A stretch of DNA of 64,000 nucleotides, taken from positions 1 to 64,000 of the forward strand of contig JAHPZI010000022.1 of NCBI GenBank assembly GCA_019058295.1. Reading direction: 5' to 3'. A program made the position numbers and the translations under genes. Of this stretch, positions 26,363-34,265 are shown piece by piece. Under the pieces are notes generated by a model, which was not told where the DNA came from, did no database searches, and saw nothing but the letters and a program-made list of their open reading frames with translations. The stretch is from Promethearchaeota archaeon. GTDB taxonomy: Archaea; Asgardarchaeota; Lokiarchaeia; Sigyniarchaeales; SOKP01. Position 1 is the first letter of the stretch. Every line of letters starts with the position of its first letter.

Positions 26363-27019
26363 ATGGGAAAATTAGGTAAAAAACTGTTCCCCAGGAAAGG
26401 CGGAAGTCAAGATAAATTAATTACAACAGTAAAACGTTATACTCGACAATTAGGACTTCGAGCTAAAGCTCATCAGAAAAGAGCAGAAGTAGCCCGCCAA
26501 AACGCGAAAATAGCATTACAGAGAGGAGAAAAAGCACGTGCAAAAAATTATCTTATTCAATACAAAAACTATCAAATAAAAGTAGATAGAGCAACTAACA
26601 TAAGAGCTAAATTCGAAAGACAAATTGAAGCTATAGAAGAAGGTTCAGCAATCGCACAATCAGGAAATTTTATGGCTCAAATGCGTGATGAGCTAAAAAC
26701 AATAGCAACTAAGGCATCCCCCGTAAAAATTGCAGAAGTTGCTGAAGATTCTGAATTATATGTCTCCGAAATTGAGGAAGCAGGAGATATCCTCGCGGGA
26801 GATCCAGAAATAGATTTAGGTATTGATGTAACATCAGAATTAAACCAACTTGAAACCGAAATATTGCTTGATGCTAGCGGATCGATGCCAACGGTACCTA
26901 CTGGAGGAGAAATGCCCCAATATATTTCGGACGTCGATCTCGATTTCGAAGCTGAGGAAGCCACTTCAAAGGCTAAACTTGAGGAAGAGATAGAAAAATT
27001 GAGGAAGGAACTAGAATAA
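26363..27019 (+). CDS. Snf7/ESCRT-III family protein (Vps20/32/60-like)
   Basis: basic N-terminal helices (AKIALQRGEKARAKNYL), acidic C-terminal half, terminal LEEEIEKLRKELE helix. Confidence 0.8.
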   Translation: MGKLGKKLFPRKGGSQDKLITTVKRYTRQLGLRAKAHQKRAEVARQNAKIALQRGEKARAKNYLIQYKNYQIKVDRATNIRAKFERQIEAIEEGSAIAQSGNFMAQMRDELKTIATKASPVKIAEVAEDSELYVSEIEEAGDILAGDPEIDLGIDVTSELNQLETEILLDASGSMPTVPTGGEMPQYISDVDLDFEAEEATSKAKLEEEIEKLRKELE

Positions 27020-30302: not shown

Positions 30303-30390
30303 CGCAAGGGGAGGGATTCGAACCCTCGAATGACATTATATCATTATCGGGATAGCAACCCGACGCACTCGACCACTATGCGACCCCTGC
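30303..30390 (-). tRNA. tRNA-Ser(GCT)
   Basis: anticodon arm TCGGG TTGCTAT CCCGA, long variable arm, G73. Confidence 0.93.
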
Positions 30391-30399
30391 TTATATAAG

Positions 30400-30487
30400 C
30401 GCGACGGGTAGGATTTGAACCTACGGTGGTGTTGAGCCACTCCCACTCTCAAGGCGGGCACAATCAACCGAGCTCTGTCACCGTCGC
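30400..30487 (-). tRNA. tRNA-Ser(TGA)
   Basis: CCCGC CTTGAGA GTGGG, long variable arm, G73. Confidence 0.93.
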
Positions 30488-30499
30488 TTTTTTTATGAA

Positions 30500-30583
30500 T
30501 ACGGGAATGCGGATTTGAACCGCAGAACCTCCTTTGAGGAGTGAAGTTTGAATTCACTGCCTTTACCACTCAGCCATTCCCGC
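30500..30583 (-). tRNA. tRNA-Leu(CAA)
   Basis: GTGAA TTCAAAC TTCAC, long variable arm, A73. Confidence 0.92.
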
Positions 30584-30588
30584 TTTTT

Positions 30589-30672
30589 TACAGGGAGAGG
30601 GACTCGAACCCTCGTAGTTCCTGCGAACCCTGAATCCTAAATCCAGTACCTTTGCCGCTTGGTTATCCCTGC
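30589..30672 (-). tRNA. tRNA-Leu(TAG)
   Basis: CTGGA TTTAGGA TTCAG, long variable arm, A73. Confidence 0.92.
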
Positions 30673-30681
30673 TTAATAGAA

Positions 30682-30767
30682 TACAAGGGGAGGGATTTGA
30701 ACCCTCGTACTCCCTGTGGAGAATAGATCTTAAGTCTATCGCTTTTACCTTTCTTAGCTACCCTTGC
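30682..30767 (-). tRNA. tRNA-Leu(TAA)
   Basis: ATAGA CTTAAGA TCTAT, long variable arm, A73. Confidence 0.93.
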
Positions 30768-30777
30768 TTACTTAAAA

Positions 30778-30850
30778 TGGGCTGGAGGGGACTTGAACCC
30801 CCGACCTCCGAGTTAAAAGCCCGTTGCGCTACCTGCTACGCTACCAGCCC
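30778..30850 (-). tRNA. tRNA-Lys(TTT)
   Basis: GGGCTGG/CCAGCCC acceptor; loop CTTTTAA. Confidence 0.93.
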
Positions 30851-30858
30851 ATTTTTGA

Positions 30859-30934
30859 TAGGAGTGGAGAGGATTGAACTCTCGACCACTGCGTTATAAG
30901 CACAGGGCTCTACCAATAACTAAGCTACACTCCT
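30859..30934 (-). tRNA. tRNA-Ile(TAT)
   Basis: CTGTG CTTATAA CGCAG; acceptor AGGAGTG/CACTCCT-A identical to the Ile(GAT) gene in the same array. Confidence 0.9.
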
Positions 30935-30939
30935 ATTGA

Positions 30940-31012
30940 TACACCCGGTAGGATTCGAACCTACATCCCCTCGCTTCGAAGGCGAGTATCCTCTCCATTG
31001 GACTACGGGTGT
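30940..31012 (-). tRNA. tRNA-Arg(TCG)
   Basis: CTCGC CTTCGAA GCGAG; A20 in D loop. Confidence 0.93.
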
Positions 31013-31018
31013 GAAGTT

Positions 31019-31095
31019 TGGTACGGGCGTGTGGATTTGAACCACAATCCATGACTTATGAGACCATAATTCTTACCAGATTAAACTACGCCCGT
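31019..31095 (-). tRNA. tRNA-Met(CAT), probably elongator; CCA encoded
   Basis: ATGGT CTCATAA GTCAT; lacks the three G-C pairs of initiator anticodon stems. Confidence 0.85.
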
Positions 31096-31103
31096 ATATA
31101 TAG

Positions 31104-31177
31104 TGGGGTTGGAAGGATTTGAACCCTCAACCTTTGATTTTGGAGACCACTGCTCTAAACCGCTAAGCTACAACCCC
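31104..31177 (-). tRNA. tRNA-Trp(CCA), intronless
   Basis: loop CTCCAAA; GGGGTTG/CAACCCC-A. Confidence 0.9.
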
Positions 31178-31185
31178 ATATTTAA

Positions 31186-31258
31186 TGAGGGTGGTAGGAT
31201 TCGAACCTACGACCTTTAGATTAGAAGTCTAACACCTTATCCGCTAGGCTACACCCTC
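31186..31258 (-). tRNA. tRNA-Arg(TCT)
   Basis: TTAGA CTTCTAA TCTAA; A20. Confidence 0.93.
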
Positions 31259-31266
31259 ATAATTAA

Positions 31267-31341
31267 TAGGAGAGATCGGATTTGAACCGATGCAGTCTTC
31301 CTCGTAAGGGAAGATCCATAACCAGGCTAGGAGACTCTCCC
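31267..31341 (-). tRNA. tRNA-Val(TAC)
   Basis: CTTCC CTTACGA GGAAG. Confidence 0.88.
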
Positions 31342-31348
31342 AAGATAA

Positions 31349-31422
31349 GGGGCATAGAGGGAATTGAACCCTCGATCCTACGATTAAGAGTCGCATGCTT
31401 TCCCTAACTAAGCCATATGCCC
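31349..31422 (-). tRNA. tRNA-Lys(CTT)
   Basis: TGCGA CTCTTAA TCGTA. Confidence 0.92.
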
Positions 31423-31437
31423 ATAGATGTGCCAATA

Positions 31438-31516
31438 TGGTAGGAGTGGAGAGATTTGAACTCTCGAACCTATAGTTTATCAGACTATCGCTCATTCCAG
31501 GCTGAGCTACACTCCT
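31438..31516 (-). tRNA. tRNA-Ile(GAT); CCA encoded
   Basis: ATAGT CTGATAA ACTAT. Confidence 0.93.
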
Positions 31517-31553
31517 ATTATTAGAAATTGAATTTGATATCTGATAACAAGAG

Positions 31554-31625
31554 TGGGATCAGAGTGACTTGAACACTCGCCCCAAGATCTTCATTCTTGT
31601 GCTCTCCCAGTTGAGCTATGATCCC
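31554..31625 (-). tRNA. tRNA-Phe(GAA)
   Basis: CAAGA ATGAAGA TCTTG. Confidence 0.9.
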
Positions 31626-31687
31626 TAAAATCTCCTCTGATTTTTTGAAGTCCACCTTTGGTCATTCTTAAATGACAATTTTTTCAT
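31625..31687 (-). CDS. putative 20-aa micro-ORF MKKLSFKNDQRWTSKNQRRF inside the left tRNA operon
   Basis: ATG at 31687; TAG overlaps G1 of tRNA-Phe; GAGGTGA 16 nt upstream. Confidence 0.35.
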   Translation of the reverse strand: MKKLSFKNDQRWTSKNQRRF

Positions 31688-31725
31688 TTTTTTTTTTATT
31701 TTTTCACCTCATTTTTTTTATTTTA

Positions 31726-31798
31726 CGCCCCTAGTAGGGTTCGAACCTACACCGCCCGATTAACAGTCGGAGATGCTACCTATTAACACTATAGAGGC
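31726..31798 (-). tRNA. tRNA-Asn(GTT)
   Basis: TCCGA CTGTTAA TCGGG; G73. Confidence 0.93.
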
Positions 31799-31917
31799 AT
31801 GTTTGAAGTTGTTGAATTAAGATAAAAGAAAAAGTATAATGCAAAAGCTAAGAGCTATGAGAATATCTTGGAAGTACAAAAGATAAATAAGTGGATTGTC
31901 AGATTTAAGTAAAGAAT

Positions 31918-32004
31918 TTACTGAATCAAACTGGAGGAGAGAAGATTATTGACGAGATTCACTCGCCACCTTTTCGATCTTAACTTAAATCTAAGTGAGG
32001 CCAT
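31918..32004 (-). CDS. putative leader peptide of left tRNA operon, MASLRFKLRSKRWRVNLVNNLLSSSLIQ (28 aa)
   Basis: ATG 25 nt downstream of a TTTAAATA box; 26/28 residues are amino acids of the downstream tRNAs. Confidence 0.7.
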   Translation of the reverse strand: MASLRFKLRSKRWRVNLVNNLLSSSLIQ

Positions 32005-32068: not shown

Positions 32069-32115
32069 TGGGAAAGAAATGGGTAAGATAGTGAATGTGG
32101 GAAAAGAATGGGTAA
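32069..32115. repeat. 18-bp direct repeat between the divergent promoters
   Basis: TGGGAAAGAAATGGGTAA (32069-86) and TGGGAAAAGAATGGGTAA (32098-115). Confidence 0.75.
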
Positions 32116-32122
32116 TTTTGAA

Positions 32123-32137
32123 CGAAATATTTAAATA
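32123..32137 (+). promoter_or_regulatory. BRE/TATA promoter for right tRNA operon
   Basis: CGAAATA-TTTAAATA, box at 32130-32137. Confidence 0.65.
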
Positions 32138-32162
32138 TTTAATTTGTGATATTATAAATACA

Positions 32163-32252
32163 ATGAGACGTGCAAAAGTGGCAACAACCACCTACCAGGA
32201 TATAGGCGCCCCCGAGCAGGGGCAATATGATAGCGAATGCTATCACCAATAA
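32163..32252 (+). CDS. putative leader peptide of right tRNA operon, MRRAKVATTTYQDIGAPEQGQYDSECYHQ (29 aa)
   Basis: ATG 25 nt downstream of TTTAAATA; 22/29 residues are amino acids of the downstream tRNAs and all ten are present. Confidence 0.7.
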   Translation: MRRAKVATTTYQDIGAPEQGQYDSECYHQ

Positions 32253-32390
32253 AAAATTTTACCCGTCTCTATTGATTTCCTTATTCTTTCCTTAGTTTTC
32301 CTAACCTTGATCGCCGTTTTCTATATACTTTAAAATCCATTTATCACGTTACTTATTTTTTCAGAAAACGGGTAAAAGCTTCATAATGAA

Positions 32391-32463
32391 GGACTGTGTA
32401 GTGTAATGGCATGCATTGAAGTTTGTGAATCTTCAGGAGGTGGTTCGATTCCGCCCACAGTCC
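32391..32463 (+). tRNA. tRNA-His(GTG)
   Basis: encoded G-1:C73, loop TTGTGAA. Confidence 0.88.
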
Positions 32464-32497
32464 TTCTTTCATAAATATAACGCATAGAAAATAAAAA

Positions 32498-32571
32498 GGG
32501 GCTGTAATATCAATCGGAAGATACTTGGTGTTGCATACCAAGGGTTGTAGGTTCAAGTCCTACCAGCTCCA
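32498..32571 (+). tRNA. tRNA-Ala(TGC)
   Basis: G3.U70, loop GTTGCAT, A73. Confidence 0.9.
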
Positions 32572-32578
32572 TAAAAAT

Positions 32579-32651
32579 ACTCCCGTAGTGTAGAGGACAA
32601 GCACTCCAAGCCTTGGACTTGGTAACGTCGGTTCGAATCCGTCCGGGAGTA
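32579..32651 (+). tRNA. tRNA-Gln(TTG)
   Basis: A1-U72; CCAAG CCTTGGA CTTGG (C33). Confidence 0.85.
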
Positions 32652-32668
32652 GTAATTTCATTGGAATT

Positions 32669-32742
32669 CTTGCTGTAGCTCAGACAGGTAGAGCAGGGGA
32701 CTGTAGATCCTTGGAGCGGAGGTTCAAATCCTCCCAGCAAGA
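32669..32742 (+). tRNA. tRNA-Tyr(GTA), intronless
   Basis: C1-G72, short variable loop, GGGGA CTGTAGA TCCTT. Confidence 0.93.
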
Positions 32743-32751
32743 CTAAGAAGC

Positions 32752-32826
32752 GGGGCACTAGTATAGTGGCTAGTATTCGCGACCGTCTATCGTGAGAAGG
32801 GGGATCGATACCCCCGTGCTCCGCCA
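32752..32826 (+). tRNA. tRNA-Asp(GTC), atypical; CCA encoded
   Basis: CGCGA CCGTCTA TCGTG, G73; carries G3.U70, C33, U37, A54. Confidence 0.82.
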
Positions 32827-32847
32827 AAAAGCATTGGAAATAATCGT

Positions 32848-32922
32848 GCGGGATTCATCTAGCGGTCAGGATCATCGCCTTCCAAGTGATTCACGGGTGT
32901 TCAAATCGCCCATCCCGCACCA
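32848..32922 (+). tRNA. tRNA-Gly(TCC); CCA encoded
   Basis: GCG/CGC-A acceptor end; ATCGC CTTCCAA GTGAT. Confidence 0.92.
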
Positions 32923-32927
32923 ATAAA

Positions 32928-33005
32928 GGCACTGTGGCCAAGTTTGGACAAGGCAGCTTCCTTGTAAGTAGCCGAGCGGGGGTTCGAATCCTCCCAGTGC
33001 CTCCA
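32928..33005 (+). tRNA. tRNA-Thr(TGT); CCA encoded
   Basis: loop CTTGTAA; GGCACTG/CAGTGCC-U. Confidence 0.85.
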
Positions 33006-33014
33006 GTAAAATAG

Positions 33015-33090
33015 GCATGCGTGGCTGAAAAGTTGAGGCGGGAGACTGCAGATCTCCTCTATGCAGGTGCAAGTCCTGCCGCGTGCTCCA
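33015..33090 (+). tRNA. tRNA-Cys(GCA); CCA encoded
   Basis: GGAGA CTGCAGA TCTCC; U73; T loop TGCAAGT. Confidence 0.9.
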
Positions 33091-33095
33091 ATCAA

Positions 33096-33170
33096 GCCCC
33101 TGTCATCTAGTAAGGTCAAGGATCCATGATTCTCAATCATGAAACGCAGATTCAAATTCTGCCAGGGGTA
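33096..33170 (+). tRNA. tRNA-Glu(CTC)
   Basis: CATGA TTCTCAA TCATG. Confidence 0.9.
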
Positions 33171-33175
33171 TAAAT

Positions 33176-33250
33176 GCTTCCATGGTGTAGCTAGGTCAAG
33201 CATCGTAGGTTTTCACCCTGCGGACTCGGGTTCGAATCCCGATGGAAGCA
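33176..33250 (+). tRNA. tRNA-Glu(TTC)
   Basis: GTAGG TTTTCAC CCTGC. Confidence 0.93.
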
Positions 33251-33260
33251 CTCATTAAAT

Positions 33261-33334
33261 GGGAGGGTAATCTAGCATGGAAGGATCCTCGCTTTGGAAG
33301 CGAGATGTCGGGAGTTCAAATCTCCTCTCTCCCA
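33261..33334 (+). tRNA. tRNA-Pro(TGG)
   Basis: GGG/CCC-A acceptor end; CTCGC TTTGGAA GCGAG. Confidence 0.9.
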
Positions 33335-33341
33335 TTTTAAT

Positions 33342-34265
33342 TTAAACAAAAGCATCTAAACATGTTTGATTTTTAACTACTTGAATCCTCTTATTTGCGA
33401 GTTCAATGTATTCCTTTGAGATTTCATATCCTACATAATGTCGTTTTAGTTTTAAGGCAGCAATTGCAGTTGTACCTGAACCTATAAAAGGATCTAATAT
33501 TACATCTCCCTCAAAGGAATAAATCTCAATTAAACGACGAGGCAATTCTTCTGGAAATGGAGCAGGATGCCCTATTTTTTTGGCTGAATCTGCTGGAAAA
33601 TTCCAAATAGATTTTGACCATTCAACGAAATCTTCCTTTTTTATCGTATTTACTTTGTTTCCTTTTTCAAGTCTATTTGAAAGTTTTGAGAATACTAATA
33701 TATACTCGTGTATATCTCTGAGACAAGGATTACTTGCCGAAGCGAAAGATCCCCAAGCGGTTGAAACACCGGCTGATGCTCCCTTATTCCAAATGATTTC
33801 GCCGCGCATATGAAAACCAATTTGATGCATTATTTCAATAATATATGCGTGTAATGGAATGTATGGTTTCCGCCCAACATTTGCAATATTTATTGCAGCT
33901 CTACCTCCAGGTACTAAAACTCTCCAAGTTTCTTTAAGAACATCTTCAAGTAATTTTAAATATTCAACAAGAGTCAAATTATCATCATAATCTTTTCCAA
34001 CGCCATAAGGAGGACTGGTTATCATTAGATGTACTGAATTATCAGGTAATAAGTCTATTTTGCGACTATCTCCTTGAATTATCTGATCTAAAGCTTTTTT
34101 TGGAATTTTATCTGAATTATCAACGTATTTAACTTTTTGTAGTTTGTTTAAACCTTTATATAAATTTGAATTATAAAAGAGAGATGAATCGTGGTTTTCC
34201 CGTTTTGAAACTCCAAAAGAACTAGTTTTTGTACCTTTTTTTGGAGTTTCCTTTTTATTTACCAT
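33342..34265 (-). CDS. site-specific DNA methyltransferase, beta class (N4-C/N6-A)
   Basis: TSPPY before HPAPFP and DPFIGSGTT. Confidence 0.92.
   Translation of the reverse strand: MVNKKETPKKGTKTSSFGVSKRENHDSSLFYNSNLYKGLNKLQKVKYVDNSDKIPKKALDQIIQGDSRKIDLLPDNSVHLMITSPPYGVGKDYDDNLTLVEYLKLLEDVLKETWRVLVPGGRAAINIANVGRKPYIPLHAYIIEIMHQIGFHMRGEIIWNKGASAGVSTAWGSFASASNPCLRDIHEYILVFSKLSNRLEKGNKVNTIKKEDFVEWSKSIWNFPADSAKKIGHPAPFPEELPRRLIEIYSFEGDVILDPFIGSGTTAIAALKLKRHYVGYEISKEYIELANKRIQVVKNQTCLDAFV

Follow-up and report, generated by a model that had tools for sequence, protein, structure and literature searches.

A candidate ribosome-sensed, two-state RNA leader upstream of a tRNA array in Lokiarchaeia

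Comparison of homologous sequences supports, with moderate confidence, the conclusion that the right-hand leader of a divergent tRNA array in Lokiarchaeia acts as an attenuator-type RNA element, ribosome sensed and with two states. The preliminary description of this DNA had proposed a switch architecture, and that proposal is upheld: the strand that follows a short leader open reading frame (segment 2) can pair either with the first codons of the ORF (segment 1) or with a strand just upstream of tRNA-His (segment 3), and both partnerships are kept in 17 of 17 homologous leaders. As read from sequence, the sensor and its two states are the well-supported part of this reading; the output, termination at a U tract through aCPSF1/FttA, and the direction in which it would act, we only infer. 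The strongest new evidence for leader-peptide sensing is a set of paralogues upstream of dapA and asd. Their codon content tracks the function of the next genes, which is the hallmark of such sensing.

The locus and its leader open reading frames

The window (the whole 64-kb stretch analyzed, contig C22) belongs to a genome of 3.2 Mb with 30% G+C and 79% completeness. It contains two divergent tRNA arrays separated by a 590-nt gap that holds both leaders. The minus-strand arm has 16 tRNA genes (30303 to 31799) and the plus-strand arm, downstream of the right leader, has 11 (32391 to 33335; His, Ala, Gln, Tyr, Asp, Gly, Thr, Cys, Glu, Glu, and Pro); jointly the arms cover all 20 amino acids, and none is common to both. 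With 27 genes between 30303 and 33335 (∼8.9 per kb), the block falls within the definition of a tRNA array unit (20 or more tRNA genes, 2 or more per kb) and resembles the array units of bacteria and phages in its number of tRNA genes (at least 20), in its density, and in being accessory within the genus. The array neighbors, which include genes for 3-dehydroquinate synthase II, Snf7/ESCRT-III, ribosomal protein L35Ae, and an XPD-type helicase, are archaeal and chromosomal. The Snf7/ESCRT-III family gene, at 26363 to 27019 on the plus strand, lies near the array and is consistent with an Asgard host. Immediately next to the end of the plus-strand array is a gene for an N6-adenine DNA methyltransferase (33342 to 34265, minus strand); L112 has a 72% identical copy beside the array, and L020 has a 32% relative.

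The 27-tRNA array is accessory and intronless, and only some genomes of the genus carry it. Of 154 genomes of the order, 7 carry the exact right-leader pattern. The array is absent from three sister genomes in the same genus (92 to 99% complete), which have dispersed tRNA genes instead, many of intron length, and a tRNA-His-Ala-Gln DNA query gave no match in five sister genomes. The window's genome also keeps dispersed tRNA genes, often intron bearing, whose anticodons duplicate those of the array. In the lineage of L031 and L057 (genome G031 and a metagenome contig), the position usually held by tRNA-Asp(GTC) is occupied by tRNA-Asn(GTT) according to ARAGORN, and the leader peptide has two Asn residues and no His. 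A 2019 survey of archaeal tRNA clusters reports clusters in Halobacteria and Methanobacteria only, and a term search of it found no mention of a leader or a promoter (PMC6333295).

The right leader is preceded on the plus strand by a BRE/TATA-like promoter (32122 to 32137) whose TATA box, TTTAAATA at 32130 to 32137, is kept in sequence and spacing in homologues. Farther 5′, two G-rich direct repeats, GGGAAAGAAATGGGTAAG and GGGAAAAGAATGGGTAAT (32069 to 32115, plus strand), form a candidate factor site. The corresponding G-rich motif, GGGAAA(N3-4)RTGGGYAATTTTGA, lies directly 5′ of the TATA box in the window and in homologues; it faces the right promoter in the window and the left promoter in the G003 clade, and in G024 it is also found 5′ of a protein gene (L007). 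The leader ATG lies 26 nt 3′ of the TATA box, and the left leader has the same box at the same spacing (∼26 nt). A start of both ORFs ∼26 nt after a consensus TTTAAATA box fits leaderless messages, and the right-leader transcript is probably leaderless, starting at or beside the AUG.

The right-leader ORF (32163 to 32252, plus strand) has 29 codons and a stop and would encode the peptide MRRAKVATTTYQDIGAPEQGQYDSECYHQ. All 17 array leaders keep this frame open, at 29, 31, or 33 codons; indels are multiples of three, and the stop, TAA or TGA, stays at the same site. In 13 of the 17 peptides the full set of amino acids that the downstream tRNAs serve (H, A, Q, Y, D, G, T, C, E, and P) is present, and in the other four, nine of these ten; the Cys codon shifts between positions 23 and 26 and the His codon among positions 16, 28, and 29, and neither is lost through these shifts. 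Among 4,631 random ATG-to-stop ORFs of 25 to 33 codons from the same genome, two have the full set of ten, and the window's count of 22 of 29 residues is reached by none.

The left leader (31899 to 32004, minus strand), which heads the 16-tRNA array, has the same design in unrelated sequence. In its 28-codon ORF (31918 to 32004; peptide MASLRFKLRSKRWRVNLVNNLLSSSLIQ), 26 of 28 residues belong to the ten amino acids that the left array serves, a share that only 9 of the 4,631 random ORFs match, and this composition is kept in homologues. Codons 4 to 7 (31983 to 31994) pair over 12 of 12 positions with 31899 to 31910, past the stop codon.

One explanation for a maintained ORF could be that the 29-residue peptide is a functional small protein acting in trans and that the RNA pairings are secondary. 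ORF length and stop position are kept, and the peptides share a recurring end motif, Y-x-S-E-C/R-Y. However, variable sites are spread almost evenly over the three codon positions (12, 13, and 13), which means that no protein sequence is being conserved; the amino acid sequence evolves neutrally, with 421 nonsynonymous and 133 synonymous differences, close to the neutral expectation. Moreover, the conserved codons coincide with RNA helices, and the paralogues described below keep the RNA scaffold while changing the peptide. We therefore consider a function of the peptide in trans very improbable.

Two competing helices and their conservation

Every sequence string quoted in the preliminary description is present at the position given there. 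Segment 1 (32165 to 32177, plus strand) spans codons 1 to 5 and is the 5′ partner of the closing helix, and segment 2 (32250 to 32269, plus strand), comprising the stop codon, an A/U run, and ACCCGTCTC, is the strand common to both helices. The proposed pairing of segments 1 and 2 (helix 1:2) stands in its outer part, where GAGACG (32165 to 32170) and CGTCTC (32264 to 32269) form 6 bp, but its inner part, GCAAAA with TTTTAC, is imperfect, with U·C and C·A mismatches; the extension that does form is a G-C pair plus AAAA/UUUU. Four small hairpins had been described within this helix (32178 to 32245, plus strand): GTGG/CCAC at 32178 to 32191, CCTA/TAGG at 32191 to 32206, GCCCC/GGGGC at 32208 to 32223, and TGATAGC/GCTATCA at 32228 to 32245. 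RNAfold predicts all four in the window, but the consensus of 15 homologues retains just two parts, the closing stem and 5 bp at the top of the last hairpin. Two compensatory pairs occur in the internal hairpins in genus g4.

The alternative partner, segment 3 (32363 to 32377, plus strand), ends 13 nt before tRNA-His and consists of ACGGGTAAAA (32368 to 32377) together with AGA at 32363 to 32365. As proposed, TTTTACCCGT (32257 to 32266) and ACGGGTAAAA are perfectly complementary over 10 bp (P = 0.003 versus shuffled sequences). Since helix 1:2 and the helix of segments 2 and 3 (helix 2:3) each take the whole of segment 2, their mutual exclusion is complete. Between segments 2 and 3 lies the spacer (32270 to 32362, plus strand), and its description as a G-poor, U/C-rich tract is borne out by a composition of 7% G and 73% pyrimidines; it includes CCGTTTTCT at 32314 to 32322, a TATA-like TTTAAAAT at 32329 to 32336, and a T6 run at 32356 to 32361.

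A third pairing had also been put forward, between AGAAAACGG (32363 to 32371) and CCGTTTTCT. It is a perfect 9-bp match in the window, but its P value versus shuffles is only 0.036 and it is broken in the nearest relatives. We rejected it as a conserved feature: L062, L065, and G005 do not preserve it, no conserved counterpart exists elsewhere, and its presence in the window is probably due to chance. The minimum free energy structure predicted by RNAfold for 32155 to 32395 combines the closed ORF element with this third pairing (−49.2 kcal/mol; z = −2.1).

Homologous leaders were collected by BLAST, by an exact pattern, and by scans of genome and metagenome collections (lokiarchaeial metagenome-assembled genomes and metagenomes), which yielded 15 distinct right leaders. 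A covariance model built on these 15 recovered two more outside the pattern, L118 (g6) and L122 (g4), for a total of 17. For the 15 homologues the search pattern fixes ATGAGACG and AGCGAAYGCTAT, and the invariance of these strings is therefore uninformative. Pattern matches at L009 and L017, at bacterial loci, and on three viral contigs (without tRNAs) were discarded as chance. All array leaders lie 214 to 253 nt 5′ of the tRNA-His gene that heads the same array.

The homologues were one of the tests that the preliminary description had named for its pairings: helices 1:2 and 2:3 are kept, with compensatory changes, but the pairing of 32314 to 32322 is lost. For helix 2:3, an ungapped complement of the 20 nt around CGTCT was found before tRNA-His in 15 of 15 leaders, with 6 to 13 bp (8 to 13 bp in all except L062), P values of 0.001 to 0.04 versus shuffles, and an end 11 to 34 nt before tRNA-His. 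A duplex computed in a short window, from the stop codon to about +24, has energies of −14.7 to −26.5 kcal/mol in the 15 leaders (z = −2.5 to −6.0; P = 0.002 to 0.018). In L118 and L122 the helix is present by eye.

The register of helix 2:3 differs by clade. In the window clade it pairs TTTTACCCGT with ACGGGTAAAA and is lengthened on the stop-codon side (UUUU/AAAA); the helix of the G003 clade pairs ACCCGTCTCTTT with AAAGAGACGGGT and is lengthened the opposite way (CUCUUU/AAAGAG); and in genus g4 it pairs CTCGTCTA with TAGATGAG, with CUCGUCUA/UAGAUGAG as the strand. In an anchored pair table, an 8-bp core is paired in 12 to 15 of the 15 sequences. Two positions of this core show double compensatory changes (C-G to U-A, and C-G to A-U or G-C), and all other single changes are wobble compatible. 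Relative to the window, L062 and L065 have A:T in place of T32257:A32377, and one-sided changes give L065 two more pairs. The stop-proximal subhelix has unrelated sequences in each clade that nonetheless still pair: AAGCAU/AUGCUU, AAAGUA/UACUUU, and AAAAAUAUC/GAUAUUUUU. Helix 1:2 is likewise kept in all leaders; index positions 3 to 7 and 9 are paired in 15 of 15, partly by ascertainment, and covariation is seen deeper in the helix, at positions 12, 14, and 16.

As isolated duplexes, helix 2:3 is stronger than helix 1:2 in 14 of 15 leaders. When the full leader is folded with either core forced, the gap between the two states ranges from −4.6 to +8.3 kcal/mol; in the window it is 4.5 kcal/mol in favor of helix 1:2. 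The spacers of the 15 array leaders contain 3 to 11% G and 62 to 75% pyrimidines. T5 to T6 runs adjoin segment 3 in most g1 leaders, on differing sides, and are absent in L041 and L033, two g4 leaders.

A wider RNAduplex comparison, of the final 70 nt with all of the leader upstream of them, gave z scores no stronger than −0.2 to −2.8, since random sequence also scores well when long interior loops are allowed. RNAalifold, given segment 2 and segment 3 windows that had been aligned automatically, returned no structure, owing to the clade-specific registers. In the remainder of the leader and tRNA-His, no fourth segment or hairpin terminator after segment 3 rose above chance. Only tRNAs reach the gathering score of an Rfam family in the window; between 31780 and 32420, the best other match scored 16 bits versus a cutoff of 80, and neither a T-box nor any other family was found.

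The position of helix 2:3 raises another explanation, namely that it is a processing or stability stem of a polycistronic pre-tRNA, as in rRNA operons, and that the ORF is incidental. Consistent with such a stem, the short-window duplex ends 4 to 26 nt before the mature 5′ end of tRNA-His in all 15 homologues and loops out an unstructured spacer, and in three clades other than the window's own the left leader has an analogous helix with a pre-tRNA-Asn segment 11 to 18 nt before tRNA-Asn. However, the same helix recurs in the dapA/asd paralogues, 110 to 200 nt from any processed RNA; inspection of the window by eye revealed no bulge-helix-bulge motif; and a processing stem leaves both the competing helix 1:2 and the codon content unexplained. 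We regard it as quite improbable.

Paralogues upstream of dapA and asd

Covariance models R1 and its extension R2 were used to find the scaffold elsewhere. In order, the scaffold consists of the TATA box, AUGAGACG, a UAUAGC..GCUAUA hairpin, the stop codon, (U)CGUCUC, the G-poor spacer, and AGAGRCGA. Paralogues were found 211 to 382 nt 5′ of dapA (TIGR00674; 329 to 343 bits versus a cutoff of 206) and asd (TIGR00978; 370 to 387 bits versus a cutoff of 301), not beside tRNA genes. The window's own genome has an asd paralogue (G000 C9:11035-11148, minus strand, which is L133:1501-1614, minus strand) 211 nt upstream of the gene, with the peptide MKIRRIYCLETQTKDKAPRKGKLYSKQYTQ, and related dapA or asd copies are present in at least eight other genomes. 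With strict filters, the scaffold family was detected in 14 of 126 sampled genomes of the taxonomic family and in 0 of 24 from neighboring families.

The paralogue peptides contain 6 to 9 Lys, or 6 Thr, in 21 to 30 residues, compared with 0 to 2 Lys in the array leaders. Their RNA follows the array leaders closely: helix 1:2 has energies of −11 to −13 kcal/mol and helix 2:3 of −14 to −25 kcal/mol (P = 0.003 to 0.023), and the spacers contain 5 to 11% G and 65 to 80% pyrimidines.

The scaffold family also has weaker members, 127 nt 5′ of a lone tRNA-Ala gene (L127, in G004) and ∼230 nt 5′ of a lone tRNA-Gln gene (L129, in G128). In G001, a genome without the array, the right-leader-like MRRVTLVAPTRRMDTLSCTRQVAAPNIH is followed by AACCCGTCTCTATTGATTTC and GGGGCGGGT (L134:1501-1613, plus strand) and then by a strong GGAGGTG Shine-Dalgarno sequence and a 40-codon acidic ORF, with no tRNAs; this element may be a relic or a reused leader.

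Promoter-like sequences downstream of the scaffold bear on a further alternative. Within the spacer of the window, the TATA-like TTTAAAATCC (32329 to 32338) is the same motif as one found ∼22 nt before a tRNA-Pro gene of the host, and by eye TATA-like boxes occur 25 to 40 nt 5′ of segment 3 in every clade. Clear BRE/TATA boxes also lie between the leader unit and dapA or asd, including asd in the window's genome, and several dapA/asd paralogues have a U-rich run directly 3′ of the complete helix 2:3. Given these boxes, the downstream genes may have promoters of their own, and the array tRNAs may thus be transcribed from within the spacer. All of these observations would suit an ORF element that is a self-contained small transcription unit (a structured small RNA or mini-mRNA) with helix 2:3 as its terminator or 3′-end structure, an array served by a separate spacer promoter, and no regulatory switch for the tRNAs. 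Such a unit, however, does not account for peptide content that tracks the downstream genes or for the competition of segment 1 for segment 2. In addition, the array leaders lack a U run after helix 2:3, and tRNA genes of the host have their TATA box 25 to 32 nt from the mature 5′ end, but tRNA-His has none at that distance. We judge a self-contained unit unlikely.

Proposed mechanism and comparison with known systems

In the ribosome-sensed reading that we favor, transcription would start at the TATA-determined distance, at or next to the AUG, and the 29-codon ORF would be translated as a leaderless message. The ∼95-nt G-poor spacer, which should be unable to pair with the pyrimidine-rich segment 2, would act as a delay. 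If the ORF were cleared fast or never translated, helix 1:2 would close while the polymerase crosses the spacer, leaving segment 3 and the adjacent U run (T6, 32356 to 32361) single stranded, and transcription would stop, either at the U tract intrinsically or through aCPSF1/FttA. If one of the ten aminoacyl-tRNAs were scarce, ribosomes would linger on the ORF, and segment 2 would be free to pair with segment 3. Formation of helix 2:3 would then block access to the U run, since the segment 3 helix would sit exactly between the U run and the polymerase, and the polymerase would read into the tRNA array. We assign the lingering state to read-through, that is, to negative feedback, because each leader samples only the amino acids of its own arm. 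This output step and its polarity are our preferred guess, which we offer tentatively and hold to be somewhat doubtful.

aCPSF1/FttA binds exposed U-rich RNA, as does a lokiarchaeal orthologue (PMC8716108), and it needs such RNA to be exposed 30 to 36 nt behind the polymerase (PMC8716108, PMC11616081); mutual exclusion of the ribosome and FttA has been hypothesized (PMC11616081). Several features complicate the proposed output. Most of the U-rich tract is made before segment 3 exists, so only the T6 run could be controlled. The position of the U runs varies from clade to clade, two g4 leaders have none, and segment 3 is followed by neither a fourth segment nor a terminator hairpin. A ribosome stalled at codons 10 to 24 covers neither segment 1 nor segment 2, and blocking helix 1:2 would therefore require queued or initiating ribosomes. 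The U-rich run that follows helix 2:3 in several dapA/asd units would fit the opposite assignment, with helix 2:3 as the terminator. Given the possible downstream promoters, read-through from the leader might add to dapA/asd expression or interfere with it.

Taken across loci, the leaders could represent a modular, leaderless leader-peptide attenuator within one family of Lokiarchaeia, with Lys or Thr codons for dapA/asd and ten single codons for the tRNA array, switched on when the relevant tRNAs or their charging run short and operating by hiding a U tract, not by a terminator hairpin. We consider this generalization possible, at a little under an even chance. The scaffold would comprise an AUG-proximal strand, a post-stop strand, a distal strand, and a G-poor delay spacer, which the codons of the mini-ORF would reprogram; a shortage of any tRNA in one half of the backup set, or of its charging, would turn on that half.

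If this generalization is true, it would amount to ribosome-mediated attenuation in Archaea, with decoding speed as a direct feedback on tRNA genes, and the dapA/asd paralogues provide an internal control for the idea. It would bear on the regulation of archaeal termination and on the purpose of accessory tRNA arrays, which could be backup decoding under tRNA depletion or starvation. To our knowledge there is no earlier case of tRNA genes controlled by a mini-ORF that samples the same tRNAs, and these would be the first known to be under a mini-ORF sampling the very tRNAs that it governs. Our literature searches on archaeal leader-peptide attenuation and on Asgard tRNA arrays found nothing relevant.

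The classical bacterial leader-peptide attenuators are trpL, hisL, thrL, ilvL, and pheL. Like the right leader, bacterial attenuators have a short ORF after the promoter whose codons match the product of the regulated genes and whose peptide is not conserved as a protein, and they have an RNA strand that can join either of two partners but not both, with one partner linked to the ORF (thr and phe examples are given in PMC3082878). Unlike them, the right leader is archaeal (from a lokiarchaeial family), is probably leaderless, and has three segments in place of four, with no hairpin and U-run terminator beside the array. It also uses single codons for ten amino acids and not runs of one, and its targets are tRNAs and not biosynthetic enzymes.

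Closer in some respects are the leaderless polycysteine short ORFs of mycobacteria, which are Cys-responsive attenuators (bioRxiv 10.1101/834739). They would share with the right leader a leaderless sensory mini-ORF on which paused ribosomes prevent an RNA duplex, and one scaffold that is reused at several loci (a "ribulon"). The downstream genes here are tRNAs, so the output must lie in transcription, processing, or stability.

Factor-dependent attenuation through leader ORFs is exemplified by tnaC and mgtL, with Rho. If FttA takes the place of the factor, the likeness lies in a leader ORF followed by an unstructured, G-poor, pyrimidine-rich tract and in RNA pairing that could hide or expose the binding site of the factor; the literature searched contains no report of a link between a leader ORF and FttA. 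With T-box leaders the right leader would share only its purpose, the coupling of expression to the state of the tRNA pool through alternative antiterminator and terminator forms. Whereas a T-box binds one uncharged tRNA directly and without translation, the right leader would sample ten amino acids through the ribosome.
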